A stretch of DNA of 64,000 bases. It comes from Escherichia coli. Its GTDB lineage: Bacteria; Pseudomonadota; Gammaproteobacteria; Enterobacterales; Enterobacteriaceae. The notes under the pieces are model-generated. The model made no database searches. It was not told the DNA's origin and saw only the letters and a program-made list of their open reading frames with translations. The stretch lies in assembly GCF_009931435.1 (NCBI RefSeq), contig NZ_CP043414.1. One strand, written 5' to 3'. Shown here one piece after another: positions 9,356 to 43,391 of this stretch. Made by a program: the position numbers and the translations under genes. How positions within the stretch are numbered: the stretch's first letter is position 1; the number at the start of each line of letters is the position of its first letter.

Positions 9356-11011
9356 TCACATTCCCGAAGGGTGCATACCTTTCGGATACTTCACGCTGTA
9401 TGAGAATGGCAGACTCACGTTCTCTTTGCCTGACAGTTTCAGCGTCCAGGACAGTTCACCCGTCTTCGCATCAAACTGTGCCTGGCCATATTGCATTTTT
9501 TCCACCGTAATATCACTGTTAGCACTGACTGGGATCTGGTCGAGTAGAGTGATATCCACCGCTTCGCCGTAGCTGTTCTTTACATTGAGGGTGTAACTGA
9601 AGTTGCGTACCGCGCTGTCGTTAAAGATAGATAACGCATTCTCTTTTTTGAGTACGGCTTTACGCTGAATAATCAGCTTAGGATCGCGGTTAAGCTGAAT
9701 ATCCAGCGACTTACCATCTTCTGGCGGCTGCAAATAGCCCACGCCGGTACGGTTGTTACCAAAGAAGATCTGACTTTCGCCGGGGATTAAATTTAACTGT
9801 TCCCACTCTTTAATTTGCACCTGGAGATACGCGTCATTACTGATCTTCGGAATAGCAAAGAAGCGATATTTACCGCTGACCGACTCTTCCTTAATGACCA
9901 CCGTGCGCGCGGTATTATCGCTGTCGATTTGCCACGGCAGCGAAAGCGCATAGCGGACATTTTGCGCAGTGAAACTTTCTGGTCGAGCCGAAGCTGGCAC
10001 TGCCTGTTCGGCATACTTGCGCCCGGCTTGTCGCTCCCTTGTTTTTTGCATCTCTGCCACCAGGGTTTTCTGCAATTCTGAGGCATCCTGGTTAGACGAA
10101 TATTCCGAACGCTGTTCCATCACGGGTGATGCTGAAAGCGAGCCGCTTACACCACCATACTCCGGAACATCCACATACAGGGTTTCCAGGTGTGGCAACG
10201 TAAGATGAGTATCAGGTTCACTGGTCGAGAGCACGAGATTAACGCCTTTCCAGGGCAACCCCGTATACTGGCGAATATTAGCCTTGTAAACCAGACGCAG
10301 CGGCTGGTTTATGGCAGTGGCGTGAATATCATAGATCGGCGTCCAGGTAGCATCAGGGGTCATATAACGTACCACCGCTTTCGCTGTGACGGCTTTTGGG
10401 GCATAGACCTTAGCGACAATAACCTGCGGATCATTGGCTGCCACCGAATCGCCGTTACTCATGCTCTCGCGTTGCTCCAGCTTTTCAATTTCAAGCTGCT
10501 TATCAGCAAGTTTCTGCGTCAACTCATTGTCGGCTCGTAATAACTCACCATTTTTCTCTTTCACCATTTGCAGATACTTGCCAACTTCGGCGGCACTTTT
10601 ATTGGTTAATGTGCTATTTGCCTCTAATACCTTAATTTGAGCCGCGATATTGTTTTTCTCGGCGGTCAGTTTTGCCTGTTCCACCTTTGCTGCTTTTAAC
10701 TGTTGCTGAATATCTGACGGCAGCGCATTCGGCTGTGTTTCCATTAGCGCGATACGTGAGGAAAGCACAGTCACTCCGTTATCGATAGAAATGGCGATGC
10801 TGTCGTCGGTTACCGAATTGGCGATATTAGTGAAAATAATTTCGCTTTCACCTGCCGGTAAGTTGAGTGTCTCTTCACCTTGTAGGCTGGCACCATGCAG
10901 ATAAACAGTGACGTCTTTGAGTGTTAGCGGTTGAGTTAACTGCGCCCCCCAAGCGGAGGACAGACACCCGGTAAGCAACATGGCGAGGGGAATAGGTTTG
11001 AAAATCAACAT
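9356..11011 (-). CDS. DUF4140/DUF4139-family putative lipoprotein with central coiled coil (MuiA-like); function unknown
   Basis: 551 aa from the ATG at 11011 (RBS aagga 7 nt upstream; ORF-track TTG at 11026 less likely); signal peptide with lipobox LLTGC; DUF4140-like N-terminus, coiled-coil segment, DUF4139-like C-terminus. Confidence 0.75.
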   Translation of the reverse strand: MLIFKPIPLAMLLTGCLSSAWGAQLTQPLTLKDVTVYLHGASLQGEETLNLPAGESEIIFTNIANSVTDDSIAISIDNGVTVLSSRIALMETQPNALPSDIQQQLKAAKVEQAKLTAEKNNIAAQIKVLEANSTLTNKSAAEVGKYLQMVKEKNGELLRADNELTQKLADKQLEIEKLEQRESMSNGDSVAANDPQVIVAKVYAPKAVTAKAVVRYMTPDATWTPIYDIHATAINQPLRLVYKANIRQYTGLPWKGVNLVLSTSEPDTHLTLPHLETLYVDVPEYGGVSGSLSASPVMEQRSEYSSNQDASELQKTLVAEMQKTRERQAGRKYAEQAVPASARPESFTAQNVRYALSLPWQIDSDNTARTVVIKEESVSGKYRFFAIPKISNDAYLQVQIKEWEQLNLIPGESQIFFGNNRTGVGYLQPPEDGKSLDIQLNRDPKLIIQRKAVLKKENALSIFNDSAVRNFSYTLNVKNSYGEAVDITLLDQIPVSANSDITVEKMQYGQAQFDAKTGELSWTLKLSGKENVSLPFSYSVKYPKGMHPSGM

Positions 11012-11168
11012 GGTTATCCTTAACAATGGGCACAGACATTGAAACGCGCGCTGGCGTTGGCCAAAGGAGTCTATTGCTCTTTGTCAGGAAAGATGTGGCG
11101 AAAAGTAGTGAATATATTCTGAAAAGTGGGGAAAAGAGACGCCTGGTGCAAAACACCAGGCGAAAGGA

Positions 11169-12209
11169 TCACGGTGCCGGATAAGTATAAACCTGATGTA
11201 CCGCTTCAATTTCAGCTAATACGTCTTCGCTTAACTCCAGATGCAAACTTTCGACGTTAGTTTTCAGCTGCTCCATCGTGGTTGCGCCCAGCAGAGTGCT
11301 GGCAACAAACGGTTGACGGCGTACAAACGCGAGCGCCATCTGAGCAGGATCCAGACCATGACGTCTGGCAATATCAACATACGCCGCGACGGCTTTTTGC
11401 GTTTGCTCACCGCTATAGCGGGTGAACCGACTAAAGAGCGTATTACGTGCGCCAGCGGGTTTTGCACCGTTGAGATATTTCCCGGTCAGCGTGCCGAAAC
11501 CCAGGCACGAATAGGCCAGCAGCTCGACCCCTTCATACTGGCTGACTTCTGCCAGACCTACTTCAAAACTGCGGTTTAACAGACTGTAAGGGTTCTGAAT
11601 GGTGACAATACGCGGCAGATCGTGTTTGTCCGCCAGATGCAGGTAGCGCATTACGCCAAATGCAGTTTCGTTCGACACGCCGATATAACGAATTTTTCCC
11701 GCGCGTTGGTACTCTGCCAGTGCGTCCAGCGTATCCAGTAACGAAACCGCAGGGGCAGAATCTGTCCAGCTATAACCGAGTTTGCCGAAGCAGTTGGTCG
11801 GGCGCTGCGGCCAGTGCACCTGATAAAGATCGAGGTAATCAGTCTGCAGGCGCTTGAGGCTGTCATGCAGCGCTTCGCGGATATTCTTCCGATCCAGCGC
11901 CTGATCCGGGCGGATGCCCTTGTCATTATTGCGCGACGGTCCGCTCACTTTGGAGGCGATAATTAACTTTTCGCGGCTGCCATGTTTCGCCAGCCAGTTA
12001 CCGACGTAGGTTTCGGTTAACCCTTGCGTTTCGGGGCGCGGCGGCACTGGGTACATTTCGGCAACGTCGATAAGGTTAATGCCCTGAGCGACGGCATAGT
12101 CGAGTTGTGCGTGGGCGTCGGCTTCGCTGTTCTGTTCACCAAACGTCATCGTGCCAAGCCCCAGCGTGCTGACTTCCAGCGAACTGTGGGGTATACGGTG
12201 ATATTGCAT
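11169..12209 (-). CDS. tas: NADP(H)-dependent aldo-keto reductase
   Basis: 346 aa AKR family; recognised sequence. Confidence 0.9.
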   Translation of the reverse strand: MQYHRIPHSSLEVSTLGLGTMTFGEQNSEADAHAQLDYAVAQGINLIDVAEMYPVPPRPETQGLTETYVGNWLAKHGSREKLIIASKVSGPSRNNDKGIRPDQALDRKNIREALHDSLKRLQTDYLDLYQVHWPQRPTNCFGKLGYSWTDSAPAVSLLDTLDALAEYQRAGKIRYIGVSNETAFGVMRYLHLADKHDLPRIVTIQNPYSLLNRSFEVGLAEVSQYEGVELLAYSCLGFGTLTGKYLNGAKPAGARNTLFSRFTRYSGEQTQKAVAAYVDIARRHGLDPAQMALAFVRRQPFVASTLLGATTMEQLKTNVESLHLELSEDVLAEIEAVHQVYTYPAP

Positions 12210-34970: not shown

Positions 34971-36224
34971 ATGTCGGGATCCAACACAGCAATCAGCCGT
35001 CGTCGTTTACTGCAAGGCGCGGGTGCCATGTGGCTATTGAGCGTAAGTCAGGTCAGTCTGGCTGCGGTCAGCCAGGTCGTGGCGGTGCGCGTCTGGCCTG
35101 CGTCCAGCTACACCCGTGTGACGGTAGAATCTAATCGTCAGCTGAAATATAAGCAGTTCGCGTTGAGTAACCCTGAACGCGTGGTGGTGGATATCGAAGA
35201 TGTAAACCTGAACTCAGTGCTCAAGGGGATGGCGGCACAAATTCGTGCTGATGACCCGTTCATCAAGTCGGCGCGCGTCGGGCAGTTTGACCCGCAAACC
35301 GTGCGGATGGTTTTTGAGTTAAAGCAAAACGTAAAACCGCAGCTGTTTGCCCTTGCTCCGGTCGCCGGGTTTAAAGAGCGTCTGGTGATGGATCTCTATC
35401 CTGCCAATGCTCAGGACATGCAGGACCCGCTGCTGGCGCTGCTGGAGGATTACAATAAAGGCGATCTCGAAAAGCAGGTGCCGCCTGCGCAGAGTGGCCC
35501 GCAGCCAGGCAAAGCAGGGCGCGATCGTCCGATTGTCATTATGCTTGACCCTGGCCATGGCGGCGAAGACTCCGGTGCGGTGGGGAAATACAAAACGCGT
35601 GAAAAAGACGTGGTATTGCAAATTGCCCGCCGTTTGCGCTCTCTGATTGAGAAAGAGGGCAATATGAAAGTTTACATGACCCGTAATGAAGACATCTTCA
35701 TTCCGTTGCAAGTGCGCGTAGCAAAAGCACAGAAACAGCGTGCTGACTTGTTTGTCTCTATTCATGCCGATGCCTTTACCAGTCGCCAGCCGAGCGGTTC
35801 ATCTGTGTTTGCGCTCTCTACCAAAGGTGCAACCAGTACCGCGGCAAAATATCTGGCGCAAACTCAGAACGCCTCGGACTTGATTGGTGGCGTGAGTAAG
35901 AGCGGCGACCGTTATGTCGACCATACTATGTTCGATATGGTGCAGTCGCTGACCATTGCCGACAGTCTGAAGTTTGGTAAAGCTGTGTTGAATAAGCTCG
36001 GTAAAATCAACAAGCTGCATAAAAATCAGGTTGAACAAGCCGGGTTTGCCGTGCTGAAAGCGCCTGATATACCCTCCATTTTGGTCGAAACGGCGTTTAT
36101 CAGTAACGTTGAGGAAGAACGTAAACTGAAAACGGCAACCTTCCAGCAGGAAGTTGCGGAATCAATCCTCGCAGGAATAAAAGCGTATTTTGCCGATGGG
36201 GCGACGCTGGCGAGAAGGGGATAA
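34971..36224 (+). CDS. amiC: N-acetylmuramoyl-L-alanine amidase AmiC
   Basis: 417 aa from the ATG at 34971 (RBS gggag); Tat signal [11 protein letters not shown]; amidase_3 domain. Confidence 0.9.
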
Positions 36225-36321
36225 TGTTTTTATTTATTCAATGAATTTATATTTCGTTGAATAGATAATATTTACCTGAATATTAGACGTTGGTTTTGTG
36301 ACTGATGTCGAATATTTGAAT

Positions 36322-36344
36322 GTCGGCTTGAAAAATAAGCCGAC
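36322..36344. other. Hairpin about 100 bp downstream of amiC
   Basis: Perfect 8-bp inverted repeat gtcggctt-gaaaaat-aagccgac; no U-tract. Confidence 0.3.
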
Positions 36345-36395
36345 CATCTCTTTAATTAAGCACAATTCCGTGTAATGTATATGCATTAGTTAATC

Positions 36396-36470
36396 ATCTT
36401 GTAACTGTTAAATCAGGCAAGGCAATGTTTGAAGTAATTATTACTTCTGACGTGCCTTGCCTTTTTTTTT
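36396..36470 (+). promoter_or_regulatory. RAT-like element overlapping a Rho-independent terminator (BglG/SacY-type antitermination leader)
   Basis: cttgtaactgttaaatcaggcaaggca resembles RAT sequences as I recall them; its 3' half forms the 5' arm of the hairpin caggcaaggca...tgccttgcc, followed by T9, just upstream of the antiterminator RBS. Confidence 0.55.
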
Positions 36471-36481
36471 GGAGCTATGGA

Positions 36482-37306
36482 ATGATCATCGAAAAAGTCA
36501 TGAACAATAATTGTGTACAGGCATCGATGAATGGACAGGAGGTTATCATTTCTGGGCCTGGCGTCGGTTACAACAAAAAATATGGAATGTCGGTCCCTGA
36601 GCATCCGGCTAACCGGATTTTTTATGTCAGAAATGAACAAAAAAATAAACTCTACAAATTGATTGAACATGTGGATATTGAGTATGTTTTTGTTGCCGAA
36701 AAAATAGTGCAATATGCAGAGAACAATCTCGAAAAAAATCTCAATCCATCGCTACTATTGATTCTTGCTGATCACATTTCGAATGCAATATCCCGAGTCG
36801 CTTCAGGCATACAAATTAATAATGTTTTCCTTGATGAAATCAAAGCGTTGTACAAAGCAGAGTATGCGATAAGTCGCGATGCATTAACTATCATTAATGA
36901 GCAATTTAGCGTTCAACTTCCTGATGATGAGATTGGTTTTATAGCATTGCATATTTTAAATAATTATGAAAATTCAGTTGATTATGAATCAGTACGGATT
37001 ATTGAGTTGTCGCAAATAATCACGGGGCTTATTGAAGTTGTTTATAACAGAAAGGTGGACAGAAGTTCATTTAATTATTCCAGGTTCATGATACACCTTA
37101 AATATTTTTCAAGTCGCGTATTATGCAATGAAAAAATAAAACAGAAAGATATTGGTGATCTCTATGAACAGTTTCTTGAGAAAGACATTCTGTTACAGCG
37201 CGCAATTCATGAAATTGAAAGGTATTTGTACGCCACTTTTAAATATGAATTGATTTTGGAAGAAAAACTATATCTCTCTATTCGCACCAAAGTATTAATG
37301 GACTAA
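36482..37306 (+). CDS. BglG/LicT-family transcription antiterminator (CAT RNA-binding domain + two PRDs)
   Basis: 274 aa from the ATG at 36482 (RBS ggag 8 nt upstream); N-terminal KVMNNNCV...GQEVIISGPGVGY matches the CAT domain; PRD-like histidine contexts; the ORF-track start at 36425 lies inside the terminator loop. Confidence 0.8.
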   Translation: MIIEKVMNNNCVQASMNGQEVIISGPGVGYNKKYGMSVPEHPANRIFYVRNEQKNKLYKLIEHVDIEYVFVAEKIVQYAENNLEKNLNPSLLLILADHISNAISRVASGIQINNVFLDEIKALYKAEYAISRDALTIINEQFSVQLPDDEIGFIALHILNNYENSVDYESVRIIELSQIITGLIEVVYNRKVDRSSFNYSRFMIHLKYFSSRVLCNEKIKQKDIGDLYEQFLEKDILLQRAIHEIERYLYATFKYELILEEKLYLSIRTKVLMD

Positions 37307-37337
37307 TTATATATAACATTTATATGAGATAACCCGC

Positions 37338-38918
37338 ATGAAACAAAAGAAAGCCTGGAGTTTTTTTCAGAGCCTGGGAAAGGCATTTATGTATCCCATC
37401 GCTCTGCTAAGTGTATGTGGCATGATGTTAGGGCTAGGAAGTGGTTTAGCCAGCGATGATATGGCAAAATTAATTCCACTACTGGCTATTCCCGTAATTA
37501 AAACCATTCTTGATTTTATTGTTAGCCTTGGTTTGTTTGCCTTTGTCAATTTACCTGTATTGTTTGCGATAGCTATACCTCTGGGGTTATTAAAAGAGAA
37601 AGAGGATAAAGCCTATGGCGCTTTTTCTGGCTTAATTGGTTTCATGGCGATGCATCTGGGAACGAACTTTTATCTTAAACAACATGACTTATTGGTCGCT
37701 GCTGATCAAATGTCGACACATGGGCAAACCATTATTCTGGGAATCCAGTCCTACAATACCAGTGTGTTGGGTGGGATTATAGCAGGATTATTAGTCGCCA
37801 GTATGTATAAAAAGATCGTTAACTTACGTATTCCTGAATCATTAGGATTTTATAGTGGCCCACGCCTGGTGCCTATTATTACACTGATTGTGATGAGTGG
37901 ATTTGGTCTGATCATCCCTTTTATCTGGCCGCCATTTTTCAATCTTTTCATGCTCATTGGCCACTGGATTTCAACTTCCGGTCCTGTTGGCTATTTTTTC
38001 TATGCAGTCGCCGAACGCGTGACGATACCTTTTGGTTTAAATCACCTGGTGACGTCAGTTTTCCGCTTTACCCCCATCGGCGGATCGGCAGTGATCGGCG
38101 GCGAAGAGTATTATGGCACCCTGAACATGTTTATGGCGTACGTCAAAGAGAATGCGGTCATTCCGCTGGATTTGGCGGGGAAAATGGAACAGGGCAAACT
38201 GATGATTCAGTATGGTCTGGCTGGTGCCGCGCTGGCGATGTATCGCACTGCTCATGCTCAAAACAGAAAAGCTATCAAAGCATTGCTTATTTCCGGGGTG
38301 CTTACAGTCATTATTGGCGGCGTCAGCGAACCGATTGAGTTTCTGTTCTTATTTGTCAGTCCACTGCTGTTTGTCTTCCATGCCTTTATGAATGGATTCG
38401 CCAACATGGTCTTGCCATATATGGGCGTGAAGATGGGATTTACTGGCGATCTGATTCAATTTATTAGCTTTGGCGTATTGCGTGGCACAAGAACAGGTTG
38501 GCCAATAGCGGTGTGTGTCGAAGTGGCCTATTTCTTTATTTATTACTTTGTGTTCCGTTGGACTATTCTCAAATTTAACCTGATGACGGTAGGCCGTGAA
38601 GAGTCCAGTCCTGTCACGCTGAACGCTCATGAGGATACGGCTATAGCGGATATCCCAACGCTTGATAAATCAGAGCTGCAAGCAGCGGAGCAGATGGTTA
38701 AGGCACTTGGTGGTAAAGAGAATATTAAATCCCTGGATAATTGCGTAACTCGTTTACGTTTAACAATCGCAGATATGGGATTGATTGACGAGGCAGCAAT
38801 AAAAAGAGCTGGCGGAATTGCGGTTGTTAAACTTGATCAAAATACCCTACAAGTCATTATCGGTACTAAAGTCATCGCCTTGCGTCGGGATATGGATAAC
38901 TACATGGGGATATGCTGA
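37338..38918 (+). CDS. PTS glucose-family EIICB component (no EIIA domain)
   Basis: 526 aa; multi-TM EIIC followed by C-terminal EIIB with cysteine motif LDNCVTRLRL. Confidence 0.85.
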   Translation: MKQKKAWSFFQSLGKAFMYPIALLSVCGMMLGLGSGLASDDMAKLIPLLAIPVIKTILDFIVSLGLFAFVNLPVLFAIAIPLGLLKEKEDKAYGAFSGLIGFMAMHLGTNFYLKQHDLLVAADQMSTHGQTIILGIQSYNTSVLGGIIAGLLVASMYKKIVNLRIPESLGFYSGPRLVPIITLIVMSGFGLIIPFIWPPFFNLFMLIGHWISTSGPVGYFFYAVAERVTIPFGLNHLVTSVFRFTPIGGSAVIGGEEYYGTLNMFMAYVKENAVIPLDLAGKMEQGKLMIQYGLAGAALAMYRTAHAQNRKAIKALLISGVLTVIIGGVSEPIEFLFLFVSPLLFVFHAFMNGFANMVLPYMGVKMGFTGDLIQFISFGVLRGTRTGWPIAVCVEVAYFFIYYFVFRWTILKFNLMTVGREESSPVTLNAHEDTAIADIPTLDKSELQAAEQMVKALGGKENIKSLDNCVTRLRLTIADMGLIDEAAIKRAGGIAVVKLDQNTLQVIIGTKVIALRRDMDNYMGIC

Positions 38919-40093
38919 TGGATGTTTTTAATACTCCTATTTCCCGCAAAGGAACATATTGTACCCAATGGGACTTTTGCGAGGACAGATTTGGTGTAAA
39001 AGATGTATTACCATTCTCTATTTCAGATATGGATCTTCCGATACCGGAAGCTATCATCAGGGCATTAAAAAAACGTCTGGAACACCCGATTTTAGGGTAC
39101 AGCCGTTGGCAGCATGATGACTATCTGAATGCGATAGTCAATTGGTATCATCAACAATATAAAACTGAAATCAAACCAGAATGGATCACCTATAGCCCAA
39201 GCGTGATGTACTCCATTGCTAAAGCAATAGAGTTATTGACATCGCATGGTGATAATATTCTCGTTTTTACACCTGTCTATAATGCATTTTTTGATATAAT
39301 TAAACATAGCGAGAGAAATATTCTGACAGCCTCTTTGATTATAAAAAATGAGGGGGGCTACGCTATCAATTGGCAAGATTTTGATCTTAAGATTCAAAGC
39401 GCAAAGATGGTGTTATTATGTAATCCTCATAACCCGACAGGAACCGTCTGGTCGGAAGAAGATCTGCATAAAATCGCTGCAAGCTGTGCAAGACATAATG
39501 TCTGGTTATGTTCAGATGAAATTCACAGTGATTTTGTTTTTAATCGTAGCTTTACATCTGCGCTTAAAATAAAAAAAGAAAAAGTAGTGGTGTTTAATTC
39601 GATATCGAAGACATTTAATGTTCCTGCGCTAACAGGATCGTATATGATTTCAACTGACGATAATTTTAATCATGAGTTCAGAACGATATCAAGATATCGC
39701 GATTTTGTAAACTCCCCATCCGTACTGAATATAATTGCAACTATTATTGCCTATAACGAATGTGAGGGATGGTTAACGTCATTAAAGGCACATATTGCCT
39801 CTAACATTCAATTCACCCAGCAGTATCTGAACGAAAATACTCCAGAATTGATCGTAAGGCCTGCTGATGGTTGCTATTTTTCGTGGATAGATTGCTCTGC
39901 TATTGGTTATCCCTTTGATGAATTCTACAGTCGATTAATTCATGAAGGCAAAGTGGGCATTATGGCGGGGAATGTCTATGGAACGGAGGGGGAGGGCTAC
40001 CTTCGTCTGAACCTGGCCTGCGGTCGAGAAAAATTATATATGGGGCTTACGCGTCTTGCGAGTGTAATTAAAAATATTAATCAAGGAAAATAA
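38912..40093 (+). CDS. MalY/PatB-family PLP-dependent C-S beta-lyase (class I/II aminotransferase fold)
   Basis: 393 aa; TYCTQWDF...DRFG N-terminal motif and PLP lysine context SISKTFNVPALTG; 7-bp overlap with the PTS gene. Confidence 0.85.
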   Translation: MLMDVFNTPISRKGTYCTQWDFCEDRFGVKDVLPFSISDMDLPIPEAIIRALKKRLEHPILGYSRWQHDDYLNAIVNWYHQQYKTEIKPEWITYSPSVMYSIAKAIELLTSHGDNILVFTPVYNAFFDIIKHSERNILTASLIIKNEGGYAINWQDFDLKIQSAKMVLLCNPHNPTGTVWSEEDLHKIAASCARHNVWLCSDEIHSDFVFNRSFTSALKIKKEKVVVFNSISKTFNVPALTGSYMISTDDNFNHEFRTISRYRDFVNSPSVLNIIATIIAYNECEGWLTSLKAHIASNIQFTQQYLNENTPELIVRPADGCYFSWIDCSAIGYPFDEFYSRLIHEGKVGIMAGNVYGTEGEGYLRLNLACGREKLYMGLTRLASVIKNINQGK

Positions 40094-40095
40094 AA

Positions 40096-40692
40096 ATGAA
40101 CAGCACGGATCTTATCCATCTCATTAAACATTTTATGCGTAACGAACATAAAGCAGTTGAAGAAGTTATTGATTCCCCCCTTTCGGAGGTCGCAAATTTA
40201 ATTAAAGTATTACAGTCTTGTCAGGGGAAAGTTGTTTTTATTGGTGTCGGTAAGTCCGGTATTATTGCCCGAAAACTCGCCGCAACATTTGCCAGCACTG
40301 GAACTCCCTCGTTTTTTGTTCACGGTACTGAAGCCGTACACGGCGATCTTGGGATGGTGGCGAAAGATGATGTTGTTATTCTTATTTCAAACAGTGGTGA
40401 GACGACAGAAATCCTGGCAACACTACCTAGTCTGAAAAAAATGGGTAATTATTTGATCTCCTTTACCCGCAGTCATCGCTCATCGCTTGCGATAAGTTGT
40501 GATTTATCCGTTGAAATTCCCGTAAAAAGTGAGGCGGATAATTTAGGTTTAGCGCCGTCATGCTCATCAACAGTCGTTCTGGTTGTTGGTGATGCGGTGG
40601 CGCTTGCGCTCTCCGAATTGAAAAAGTTTACTCGTGCTGATTTCGGCTTATATCATCCAGGAGGTGCGCTCGGTATTAAAGCAAACTCATAA
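40096..40692 (+). CDS. Single SIS-domain phosphosugar isomerase, arabinose-5-phosphate isomerase-like, lacking CBS domains
   Basis: 198 aa; GVGKSGIIARKLAATFASTGTPSFFVH and SNSGET motifs resemble the KpsF/GutQ SIS domain; no CBS pair. Confidence 0.8.
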   Translation: MNSTDLIHLIKHFMRNEHKAVEEVIDSPLSEVANLIKVLQSCQGKVVFIGVGKSGIIARKLAATFASTGTPSFFVHGTEAVHGDLGMVAKDDVVILISNSGETTEILATLPSLKKMGNYLISFTRSHRSSLAISCDLSVEIPVKSEADNLGLAPSCSSTVVLVVGDAVALALSELKKFTRADFGLYHPGGALGIKANS

Positions 40693-40762
40693 TTTTAGAA
40701 TATAAAACAGTAACCGGTCACGCCATCTTTTGGGGTGGCGTTCATTGATGTGAGTGTCAGCT

Positions 40763-41710
40763 ATGAAAAACGTTCTGGTCACCGTTCCCAGCTTTTCAGC
40801 GCGTTGTGTTTCTGCCAGCAAGCTGCTAAGAGAAAATCATTTTAACCTTATTATCAAGAATAATGTGGAGCATCTGGTTAAATCAGAATCCACAGTATTA
40901 CGAGAATCTATTTGCGCAGTCATTGCCGGAAAAGATTGTTATCAAGCGGATACGTTATCGCGACTACCAGGAGTGAAAATAATATCGAGATTCGGGACAG
41001 GGATTGATAATATTGATCTTCATACGGCTCGACAATCAGGTATTGTGGTCAATAATGCTGTTGGGATTAATTCAAATGCAGTCGCGGAATTTATCATTGG
41101 TCTTATTTTTGCGAGCATGAGAAATATCCCCGGTAGCTATCATGCGATGCAAAATGGTTATTGGGGCGAGTCGCATGGCTGCGAGTTACAAGGTAAACGT
41201 ATTGGCCTGCTTGGCTACGGCAATATTGGCAAAACACTGGCGAAAAGGTTATCTGGTTTTGATGTTGAGCTTTTAGCTTTTGACAAACAACCCGATTTCC
41301 AGGCCGCAGGCAAAGATGGAGTTCAGTTCGTATCAATTGAAGATATCTTTATGCAGTCTCATGTCATCATCGTTCTTTTGCCATTTTCTCCGGAGCTGGA
41401 GAACTTCATTAGTCATAAATATTTGTCGATGATGCGCAATGGTGCTCTTATCATCAACGCCGCAAGGGGAAAGTTGCTGGATGAGGGTGCTTTACTTCAG
41501 GTAATTGAAGAACGAAATGTTTTTGCAGCGCTGGATGTGTTTAGCTCTGAACCGCTAGCGCAATTTAGCCCATTGCTACATGCCAGGAATATCATTACAA
41601 CGCCGCATATTGCGGCCGCCACCGTTGAGTCATACCAGCAAACCGGGATATACGTTGCCAGGTCGATAATAGATTTCTTTGCAGGAAGGGAGATAAAAAA
41701 CGTGCTGTGA
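40763..41710 (+). CDS. D-isomer-specific 2-hydroxyacid dehydrogenase family protein (NAD-binding)
   Basis: About 315 aa from the ATG at 40763 (a GTG at 40754 is possible); GxGxxG motif GLLGYGNIGKTLAKRL; C-terminal catalytic His region TPHIAAAT. Confidence 0.8.
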   Translation: MKNVLVTVPSFSARCVSASKLLRENHFNLIIKNNVEHLVKSESTVLRESICAVIAGKDCYQADTLSRLPGVKIISRFGTGIDNIDLHTARQSGIVVNNAVGINSNAVAEFIIGLIFASMRNIPGSYHAMQNGYWGESHGCELQGKRIGLLGYGNIGKTLAKRLSGFDVELLAFDKQPDFQAAGKDGVQFVSIEDIFMQSHVIIVLLPFSPELENFISHKYLSMMRNGALIINAARGKLLDEGALLQVIEERNVFAALDVFSSEPLAQFSPLLHARNIITTPHIAAATVESYQQTGIYVARSIIDFFAGREIKNVL

Positions 41711-41736
41711 GTTCAGCTAAGGAAGATTTCAGGTAC

Positions 41737-41770
41737 AAAAAAACCGCAATTTGTGAAACACATTGCGGTT
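41737..41770 (-). terminator. Rho-independent terminator of the tRNA-fMet operon (minus strand)
   Basis: On the minus strand, hairpin aaaccgcaatgtgtttcacaaattgcggttt followed by T7. Confidence 0.6.
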
Positions 41771-41788
41771 TATCAGCATCATAAGTGT

Positions 41789-41865
<77 letters not shown>

Positions 41866-41898
41866 TCACCGTACTGCTTTACTTCATCAAATTTTGAT

Positions 41899-41975
<77 letters not shown>

Positions 41976-42008
41976 TCACCGTACTGCTTTACTTCATCAA
42001 ATTTTAAT

Positions 42009-42085
<77 letters not shown>

Positions 42086-42293
42086 TCCGTGGATGCGCAC
42101 TATACTCCGCTCGCGTTTTCATGCAACCTTTTTTTTACCCAGATCACGGATTTGGTATGATTTTGAGCAAAAACAAATCACTAAAGCCTGTTTTTTGTGC
42201 AAAATTTGCGTCAGGGAGAGGCTGCTCATTTCATTAAACGCAGCGGTTTGTTATCTTCATTGCGCCTTATTTTTTAAACTGAAGAAGAGAACA

Positions 42294-43391
42294 ATGAAAG
42301 GACGTTGGGTAAAGTACCTTCTTATGGGCACGGTTGTGGCAATGCTTGCCGCCTGCTCTTCCAAACCAACCGATCGCGGACAGCAATATAAAGACGGGAA
42401 ATTTACCCAGCCTTTCTCTCTGGTAAACCAGCCAGATGCCGTTGGCGCGCCAATTAACGCCGGTGATTTTGCCGAGCAAATTAACCATATCCGTACTTCG
42501 TCACCGCGTCTGTATGGCAACCAGAGTAATGTTTATAATGCGGTGCAGGAGTGGCTACGCGCAGGCGGTGATACCCGCAATATGCGTCAGTTCGGCATTG
42601 ACGCCTGGCAGATGGAAGGTGCCGACAACTATGGCAACGTGCAGTTTACGGGCTATTACACGCCTGTCATTCAGGCGCGCCATACCCGTCAGGGCGAGTT
42701 CCAGTATCCTATTTACCGTATGCCGCCAAAACGTGGTCGTCTGCCGTCTCGTGCGGAGATCTACGCGGGAGCATTGAGCGATAAATACATCCTCGCTTAC
42801 AGCAACTCTCTGATGGATAACTTCATTATGGATGTGCAGGGTAGCGGGTATATCGATTTTGGTGATGGCAGTCCGCTTAACTTCTTCAGCTATGCCGGAA
42901 AGAATGGTCATGCCTATCGCAGTATTGGTAAGGTGCTGATTGACCGTGGCGAAGTGAAAAAAGAAGATATGTCGATGCAGGCGATTCGTCACTGGGGTGA
43001 AACACACAGTGAAGCCGAGGTTCGCGAGCTGCTGGAACAGAACCCGTCTTTCGTCTTCTTTAAACCGCAATCTTTTGCTCCGGTGAAAGGGGCAAGTGCG
43101 GTGCCGCTGGTTGGTCGCGCTTCAGTTGCGTCCGATCGTTCCATTATCCCGCCTGGTACAACCTTACTGGCAGAAGTGCCGCTGCTGGATAATAACGGCA
43201 AATTTAACGGTCAGTACGAACTGCGGCTGATGGTGGCGCTGGATGTCGGTGGTGCAATCAAAGGCCAACACTTCGATATTTATCAAGGTATCGGGCCGGA
43301 AGCCGGACACCGCGCAGGTTGGTACAACCACTATGGACGTGTTTGGGTGCTGAAAACCGCCCCGGGCGCAGGTAACGTCTTTAGCGGCTGA
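42294..43391 (+). CDS. mltA: Membrane-bound lytic murein transglycosylase A (lipoprotein)
   Basis: 365 aa from the ATG at 42294; signal peptide with lipobox LAACSS; the longer ORF-track start at 42012 would read through the tRNA genes. Confidence 0.9.
   Translation: MKGRWVKYLLMGTVVAMLAACSSKPTDRGQQYKDGKFTQPFSLVNQPDAVGAPINAGDFAEQINHIRTSSPRLYGNQSNVYNAVQEWLRAGGDTRNMRQFGIDAWQMEGADNYGNVQFTGYYTPVIQARHTRQGEFQYPIYRMPPKRGRLPSRAEIYAGALSDKYILAYSNSLMDNFIMDVQGSGYIDFGDGSPLNFFSYAGKNGHAYRSIGKVLIDRGEVKKEDMSMQAIRHWGETHSEAEVRELLEQNPSFVFFKPQSFAPVKGASAVPLVGRASVASDRSIIPPGTTLLAEVPLLDNNGKFNGQYELRLMVALDVGGAIKGQHFDIYQGIGPEAGHRAGWYNHYGRVWVLKTAPGAGNVFSG

Follow-up and report, generated by a model that had tools for sequence, protein, structure and literature searches.

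The probable paf islet and its products

The window analysed, a 64-kb stretch of the Escherichia coli chromosome, carries an islet of five genes, all on the + strand, inserted between amiC (ending at 36224) and the metZWV tRNA genes, from the amiC stop codon onward (Table 1). In K-12, amiC and metZWV are 73 bp apart. The islet was found in 1689 of 5426 complete E. coli genomes (31%). Its intergenic gaps do not exceed 70 nt, and a consensus promoter and terminator scan detected no strong terminator between its genes.

Table 1. Features of the islet, its leader and its right border (window coordinates).
Feature	Position	Strand	Basis or remark
Candidate -10 hexamer TAATGT (36373-36378) and conserved CAT at predicted start (~36385)	36373-36386	+	prediction only
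RAT-like antiterminator hairpin	36397-36422	+	fold, RAT model, conservation
Intrinsic terminator (hairpin 36415-36462, U-run to 36470)	36415-36470	+	fold, covariation
Shine-Dalgarno GGAG (36471-36474) and in-frame ATG (36482-36484) of antiterminator gene	36471-36484	+	
Antiterminator gene, 274 aa, inferred pafR	36482-37306	+	BglG/SacY family
MalX-type (glucose/maltose) PTS EIICB, 526 aa, inferred pafP	37338-38918	+	TIGR02004
PatB/MalY-type C-S lyase	38912 or 38918 to 40093	+	
SIS-only KpsF-like sugar-phosphate isomerase	40096-40692	+	
Phosphoglycerate-dehydrogenase-like 2-hydroxyacid dehydrogenase	40754 or 40763 to 41710	+	
metZWV, three identical initiator tRNA-Met genes, 110 nt spacing	41792-42085	-	right border of islet

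The locus matches c3405-c3410 of the metV island of CFT073, where the same cluster lies beside amiC with an antiterminator 98% identical (protein) and a leader 99% identical. These genes of PAI-CFT073-metV are annotated as a maltose/glucose PTS cluster (PMC2831201). Two later papers describe pafR and pafP of the metV island as an antiterminator/PTS permease pair, from Baum et al. 2014 (PMC8882828, PMC9981650), and the former states that pafR and pafP mutants are attenuated in mouse UTI, both genes being required for full UPEC fitness in the mouse urinary tract (PMC8882828). From the CFT073 match and this published pair, we infer that the first two genes of the window cluster are pafR and pafP and that the islet is the paf operon, with the lyase, isomerase and dehydrogenase genes as its presumed cargo.

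In CFT073 (NC_004431.1 3225001-3275000, positions 1-24290), the dehydrogenase-like gene is separated from the tRNA side of the island by a full type VI secretion cluster, and in the window the five paf-cluster genes stand alone; the metV island is therefore modular. RefSeq annotation of the closest genome (strain R32_14_1F, 10564-11510) gives the dehydrogenase-like gene as frameshifted; the copies in the window (40754-41710) and in CFT073 are intact. Between the dehydrogenase-like gene and the tRNA genes, a hairpin (AACCGCAAT...ATTGCGGTT, 41742-41770) is preceded by A7 on the + strand and thus reads as a stem followed by T7 on the - strand, where by its sequence it is the predicted terminator of the metZWV tRNA operon; the paf operon may end there too. 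At the corresponding position, K-12 carries another hairpin. A mechanically called ORF (42012-43391) overlaps the metZWV tRNA genes at its 5' end.

The sequence-only reading had placed an antiterminator gene here with a PTS gene downstream, and the protein searches agree. PafR consists of a CAT_RBD domain (residues 1-55, Pfam E = 2.7e-14), a PRD (73-160, E = 1.6e-23) and a weak second PRD (184-250, E = 0.085), and so has the CAT plus two-PRD architecture, with a divergent PRD2. Its NCBIfam scores are 227.7 bits for LicT (below cut-off), 178.6 for GlcT, in second place, and 104.5 for BglG, and it matches LicT and GlcT structures in the PDB, aligning to LicT PRD1-PRD2 over residues 57-269. His98 and His157 (PRD1) and His205 (PRD2) stand at the positions of LicT H100, H159 and H207, three of the four conserved phosphorylatable histidines of the family. 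The position of the fourth, LicT H269, is Arg268 in five of five PafR-clade proteins aligned, and His in Firmicute relatives. The CAT domain keeps the N-terminal KxxNNN stretch and carries Pro26 in place of LicT Arg27 and Tyr30 in place of LicT Phe31, an otherwise conserved Phe; these are RNA-contact and specificity positions (PMC3105407). Both substitutions occur in all five PafR-clade proteins aligned, whereas Firmicute relatives have R/K and F.

PafP, whose gene begins 31 nt after pafR, scores 536.6 bits against TIGR02004 (PTS-IIBC-malX), below the cut-off of that model. It has the EIIB motif DNCVTRLR with Cys469 and no EIIA domain, and it presumably relies on the general EIIA-Glc. PafP is the presumed sensor that phosphorylates PafR.

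A RAT-like element overlapping a terminator

The leader had been read as resembling the ribonucleic antiterminator (RAT) targets of this protein family, and the string on which that reading rested, CTTGTAACTGTTAAATCAGGCAAGGCA, is present at 36398-36424, within 2 nt of where it had been placed. The RAT core pattern TTGTNACTGN6CAGGCAA has one exact match in the 64-kb window, with a chance expectation of ~1e-4. The 3' end of the RAT lies 59 nt upstream of the pafR ATG, with the EIICB gene following pafR. Folding gives a lower stem of five pairs (U36397-G36422, C36398-G36421, U36399-A36420, U36400-A36419, G36401-C36418), a UAA/G internal loop, an apical stem of three (C36405-G36416, U36406-A36415, G36407-C36414) and the hexaloop UUAAAU, at -6.3 kcal/mol for the RAT alone. 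In the numbering of the canonical 29-nt RAT, the middle stem (4-6/23-25), the upper internal loop (U7-N8-A9 opposite G22) and the apical stem (10-12/19-21) are all present.

The base of the element falls outside the canonical 29-nt LicT/SacY/BglG-type subclass, in which the pairs G1-C29 and G2-C28 at the base close an asymmetric lower internal loop (position 3 opposite 26-27), itself contacted by the second CAT monomer. The E. coli paf RAT instead reads A1 U2 C3 ... G26 G27 C28 A29, and C3-G26 and U2-G/A27 stack onto the middle stem. None of the ~20 Paf-type leaders has the G1-C29 or G2-C28 pair or internal loop 1. LicT contacts both RAT loops (PMC3105407), and accepted RATs, such as that of ptsG, likewise differ in the lower region (PMC1635312). 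An outer pairing of C0-A1-U2 with A30-U31-G32, which would restore the lower bulge, was rejected: it is broken without compensation in Citrobacter, Atlantibacter and one metagenomic leader (L016).

For a search independent of the paf sequence, a covariance model (R1) was built from seven RATs of other loci, with the paf RAT excluded: two of E. coli bgl, three of the Clostridium tertium licT locus and two of a Thermoanaerobacterium locus, the latter two loci having been reached via distant PafR homologues. The whole 64 kb was scanned on both strands with filters off. The top match was 36399-36420, with an exact core, at 16.4 bits (rough E ~0.02); the paf RAT aligns to the model at positions 4-26/28 only. 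Over those same positions only, Paf-type elements score 15.9-17.7 bits, and divergent RATs from outside the training set (three other Firmicute loci) score 17.5-24.6 bits over the full model, so that 16.4 bits ranks low among genuine divergent RATs. The second match (41255-41293, - strand, 14.2 bits, E ~0.08), antisense in the dehydrogenase gene, is probably due to chance, since it consists of the GGxUUGUU...CAAAACC ends only, with the core replaced by a 24-nt insertion. An Rfam 15 scan of 35500-42500 with E up to 10 gave no match at the RAT site, its matches being three tRNAs and one sub-threshold snoRNA-family match only. In each of 1688 E. coli genomes the 37-nt RAT region occurs once, with no further near-identical copy found, a count in which only close copies are detectable.

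The 3' half of the RAT (36415-36422) doubles as the 5' arm of an intrinsic terminator, an 8-nt overlap. Here the sequence-only reading, which described a RAT whose 3' portion forms one arm of a strong terminator hairpin followed by T9, holds in its essentials (CAGGCAAGGCA at 36414-36424, TGCCTTGCC at 36453-36461, T9 at 36462-36470), and falls short on the size of the hairpin, which is larger than described: 21 bp, interrupted, in three stacked helices from 36415 to 36462, with a dG of -28.1 kcal/mol (z = -7.25; none of 200 shuffles folds as well). Its base has ten pairs, six of them G-C, followed directly by U9, as in intrinsic terminators. The consensus terminator scanner did not list it, because the scanner is limited to loops of 8 nt.

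The two structures are mutually exclusive, and two of the checks that the sequence-only reading had suggested, RNA folding and a covariance-model search, came out in its favour. The leader folds at -29.6 kcal/mol freely and at -16.4 kcal/mol with the RAT forced, a cost of 13 kcal/mol, and in the forced fold only an apical hairpin remains, with unpaired GUGCCUUGCC between it and the U-run, so that no stem abuts the U-run. By itself the RAT is much the weaker structure (-6.3 versus -28 to -29.6 kcal/mol).

Upstream of the RAT, the candidate -10 hexamer reads TAAGGT or TAGGGT in orthologues, and the block GTGTAnnGTATA...CAT is conserved amid diverged upstream DNA. The consensus promoter scan did not list this hexamer and found no convincing sigma-70 promoter in the leader. 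Further upstream, 36297-36312 (TGTGA-N6-TCGAA) resembles a pair of CRP half-sites whose centre lies ~80 nt before the predicted start; of the two, TGTGA is kept in E. coli, E. whittamii and Atlantibacter, and the second is poor.

Conservation, covariation and distant relatives

The alignment comprised thirteen orthologous leaders: those of E. coli, E. whittamii, two Citrobacter and Atlantibacter, plus leaders on metagenomic contigs. RAT conservation is 92-100% across Escherichia, Citrobacter and Atlantibacter, versus 40-69% identity for the flanking leader DNA; for Citrobacter and Atlantibacter, identity is 40-52% upstream of 36362 and 92-96% within the RAT. The RAT varies at three positions only: U2 is A in L016, A8 is C in Atlantibacter, and at position 27 G is replaced by A, a change that is compensated in the 3' arm of the terminator (C to U) and also improves the pairing of U2. 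Terminator pairing is kept in 93.6% of cells across the 13 leaders, versus 33-54% in a control with slid partners, and three pairs are changed on both sides; G-C becomes A-U at 36422/36455 and 36431/36447, and the stem is rebuilt in Atlantibacter. The RAT itself showed no covariation among the 13 leaders because it is near-invariant, which is expected for a sequence-specific protein site and is no proof of structure.

A context-blind scan of metagenome contigs with the pattern CTTGTNACTGN6CAGGCAAG returned 120 stretches. Seven of these are Paf-type leaders, all with a terminator and pafR downstream, and they add pairing-compatible variants. In at least 24 other, non-enterobacterial contigs, the motif (mostly GG-CTTGTGACTG...CAGGCAAG-ACC, with a T-run within 80 nt) precedes a PafR-like gene (31-39% identity) by ~130-400 nt, and a PafP-like gene (~34% identity over its full length) comes next in most of them, and wherever the contig is long enough. 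Genes for the lyase, isomerase and dehydrogenase are missing from these relatives. Modules with the RAT GGCTTGTGACTG...CAGGCAAGACC (e.g. L025, L028, L065, L114) share with paf the gene order, the position of the leader and the same RAT core, including C3/G26, but keep a GG/CC base that the paf RAT lacks. In enterobacteria, a conserved module made up of RAT, terminator, antiterminator and MalX-like EIICB is thus represented by the paf leader, which stands apart within it through loss of the GG/CC clamp.

Escherichia, Citrobacter and Atlantibacter are the only genera to which PafR orthologues (77-93% identity) are assigned, some further ones lying on unassigned metagenomic contigs. After these come clostridial LicT-like proteins (no more than 37% identity), and E. 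coli BglG scores far lower. The identity gap between the orthologues and the clostridial proteins hints that the module may have been acquired from Firmicutes.

Among known systems, bgl of the same species (BglG/BglF) has, like paf, a RAT-terminator upstream of the antiterminator gene, followed by a PTS permease. The two have the RAT core TTGTNACTG...CAGGCAA in common, and the energies of the experimentally proven bgl switches are close to those of paf (in MG1655, RAT/terminator -6.4/-25.2 kcal/mol for the bgl leader and -7.8/-33.5 kcal/mol for the bgl intergenic pair; RAT/leader -6.3/-29.6 kcal/mol for paf). They differ in that a second RAT/terminator separates bglG from bglF, where the paf gap is only 31 nt, in that bgl RATs have GGA...AAACC bases with loop 1, which the paf RAT does not, and in that BglF is a beta-glucoside EIIBCA and PafP a MalX-like EIICB without EIIA. 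B. subtilis LicT is the closest to PafR by profile and PDB search. Compared with LicT, SacY and SacT of B. subtilis and the licS, bglP, sacB and sacPA RATs, the paf RAT is without the closing G-C pairs and the asymmetric loop 1, PafR has Tyr for the conserved Phe and Arg for the last PRD2 histidine, and the host is Gram-negative; G26 is common to the paf and sacB-type RATs, and PafR has the residue of SacT at Pro26 and that of SacY at Asn31 (PMC3105407). GlcT-ptsG of B. subtilis and Staphylococcus has, as paf does, a glucose-family EIICB-type permease as partner, and its RAT also departs from the LicT/SacY type in the lower region (PMC1635312). The ptsG RAT lies between both genes, whereas that of paf is upstream of the antiterminator gene, and no counterpart of the symmetric lower base-triple of ptsG was found in the paf RAT.

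A predicted sugar-gated switch

Taken together, these observations make it likely that the paf leader contains a RAT/terminator switch operated by PafR, gated by PafP and autoregulating the paf operon. The case draws on the sequence, the exclusive folds, conservation, covariation, the domains found and the recurrence of this module in distant relatives; the binding of PafR to the RNA, its phosphorylation control, the promoter with its start site and the inducer enter as predictions. In the proposed mechanism, the nascent RNA would first form the weak RAT hairpin, the 3' half of which, if the RAT were left alone, would be captured by the far more stable terminator, stopping transcription before pafR. 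When PafP transports its sugar, PRD1 of PafR (His98/His157) would no longer be phosphorylated, and a PafR dimer would bind and lock the RAT via its CAT domain, blocking the terminator. RNA polymerase would then read into pafR-pafP and the three metabolic genes, and PafR would amplify its own synthesis; the switch is thus probably autoregulatory.

The hairpin could alternatively be a constitutive terminator or insulator, for instance the working 3' end of amiC, with the RAT a non-functional relic of an ancestral module. Homology to K-12 does not extend past the amiC stop codon, and the terminator that K-12 has after amiC (AAAAAGGCGCTGAATGGCGCTTTTTT) is missing here, which fits such a role, as does the want of canonical basal pairs and loop 1 in the RAT. 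A relic would decay, however, and the RAT is far better conserved than the leader DNA around it. The RAT and terminator also stay with the islet at loci that have a gene other than amiC upstream (L004, L017-L019), and a constitutive terminator of -28 kcal/mol located 11 nt before the start codon would shut off an operon which 31% of complete E. coli genomes retain intact. We regard a relic beside a constitutive terminator as improbable. The same stretch bears on amiC itself, in that the first structure 3' of it (region 36225-36344) is a 9-bp hairpin (36322-36344, -13.3 kcal/mol) without a proper U-run; as the K-12 terminator is also absent, amiC transcripts may continue as far as the paf leader and have their 3' end at the terminator controlled by the RAT.

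The switch could also be real but worked mainly by another regulator, for example through cross-talk from BglG, with the main targets of PafR elsewhere in the genome. The core shared with the bgl RATs would allow this, cross-talk within the family is documented in B. subtilis (PMC1635312, PMC3105407), and PMC8882828 reports a microarray in which PafR expression alters many genes. Yet the switch and pafR are co-inherited at every locus seen, including those of Citrobacter and Atlantibacter, the clade-specific RAT base co-occurs with clade-specific CAT substitutions, and the 37-nt RAT region is single-copy in 1688 of 1688 carrier genomes, close copies being those detectable. Control mainly by a foreign regulator therefore seems quite improbable. 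Least credible of all is translation from ATG 36425, the start used in the mechanical ORF list, which would put the hairpin inside the coding sequence of a 293-aa protein and leave no leader element. That codon is ACG or AGG in most orthologues and has no Shine-Dalgarno sequence upstream, whereas the start at 36482 is that annotated by RefSeq, begins the Pfam CAT_RBD alignment at residue 1 and has GGAG 7 nt before it. The sequence-only reading was right to prefer 36482, and its placing of 36425 in the hairpin loop gives way to a one-base bulge.

Under the favoured PafR-operated switch, a bolder and rather doubtful extension can be stated. PafR might read its truncated RAT, without G-C clamp or lower loop, through a CAT domain with co-evolved Pro26 and Tyr30, in a distinct and possibly asymmetric mode that insulates paf from BglG; the leader terminator, and not a silent promoter, might lie behind the undetected in vitro expression; and the switch might gate read-through from amiC as well, since the islet replaced the terminator of amiC.

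The abstract by Baum et al. from 2014 reportedly gives the RNA targets of PafR and the inducing sugar as unknown, and expression from the paf promoter as undetected in vitro. The cognate RAT/terminator in the paf leader is a concrete candidate binding site for PafR, and in vitro silence would be simply explained by termination in the leader until PafR is activated. According to PMC12591593, K-12 and UPEC genomes were searched for RATs by Gordon et al. (2015). The mechanism is textbook and the genes are published, and the paf leader is an ordinary BglG/SacY-type switch with a slightly unusual base; consequently, the value of the paf switch is practical rather than conceptual. A comparison of the leader with and without its terminator offers a reporter design for screening candidate host sugars.
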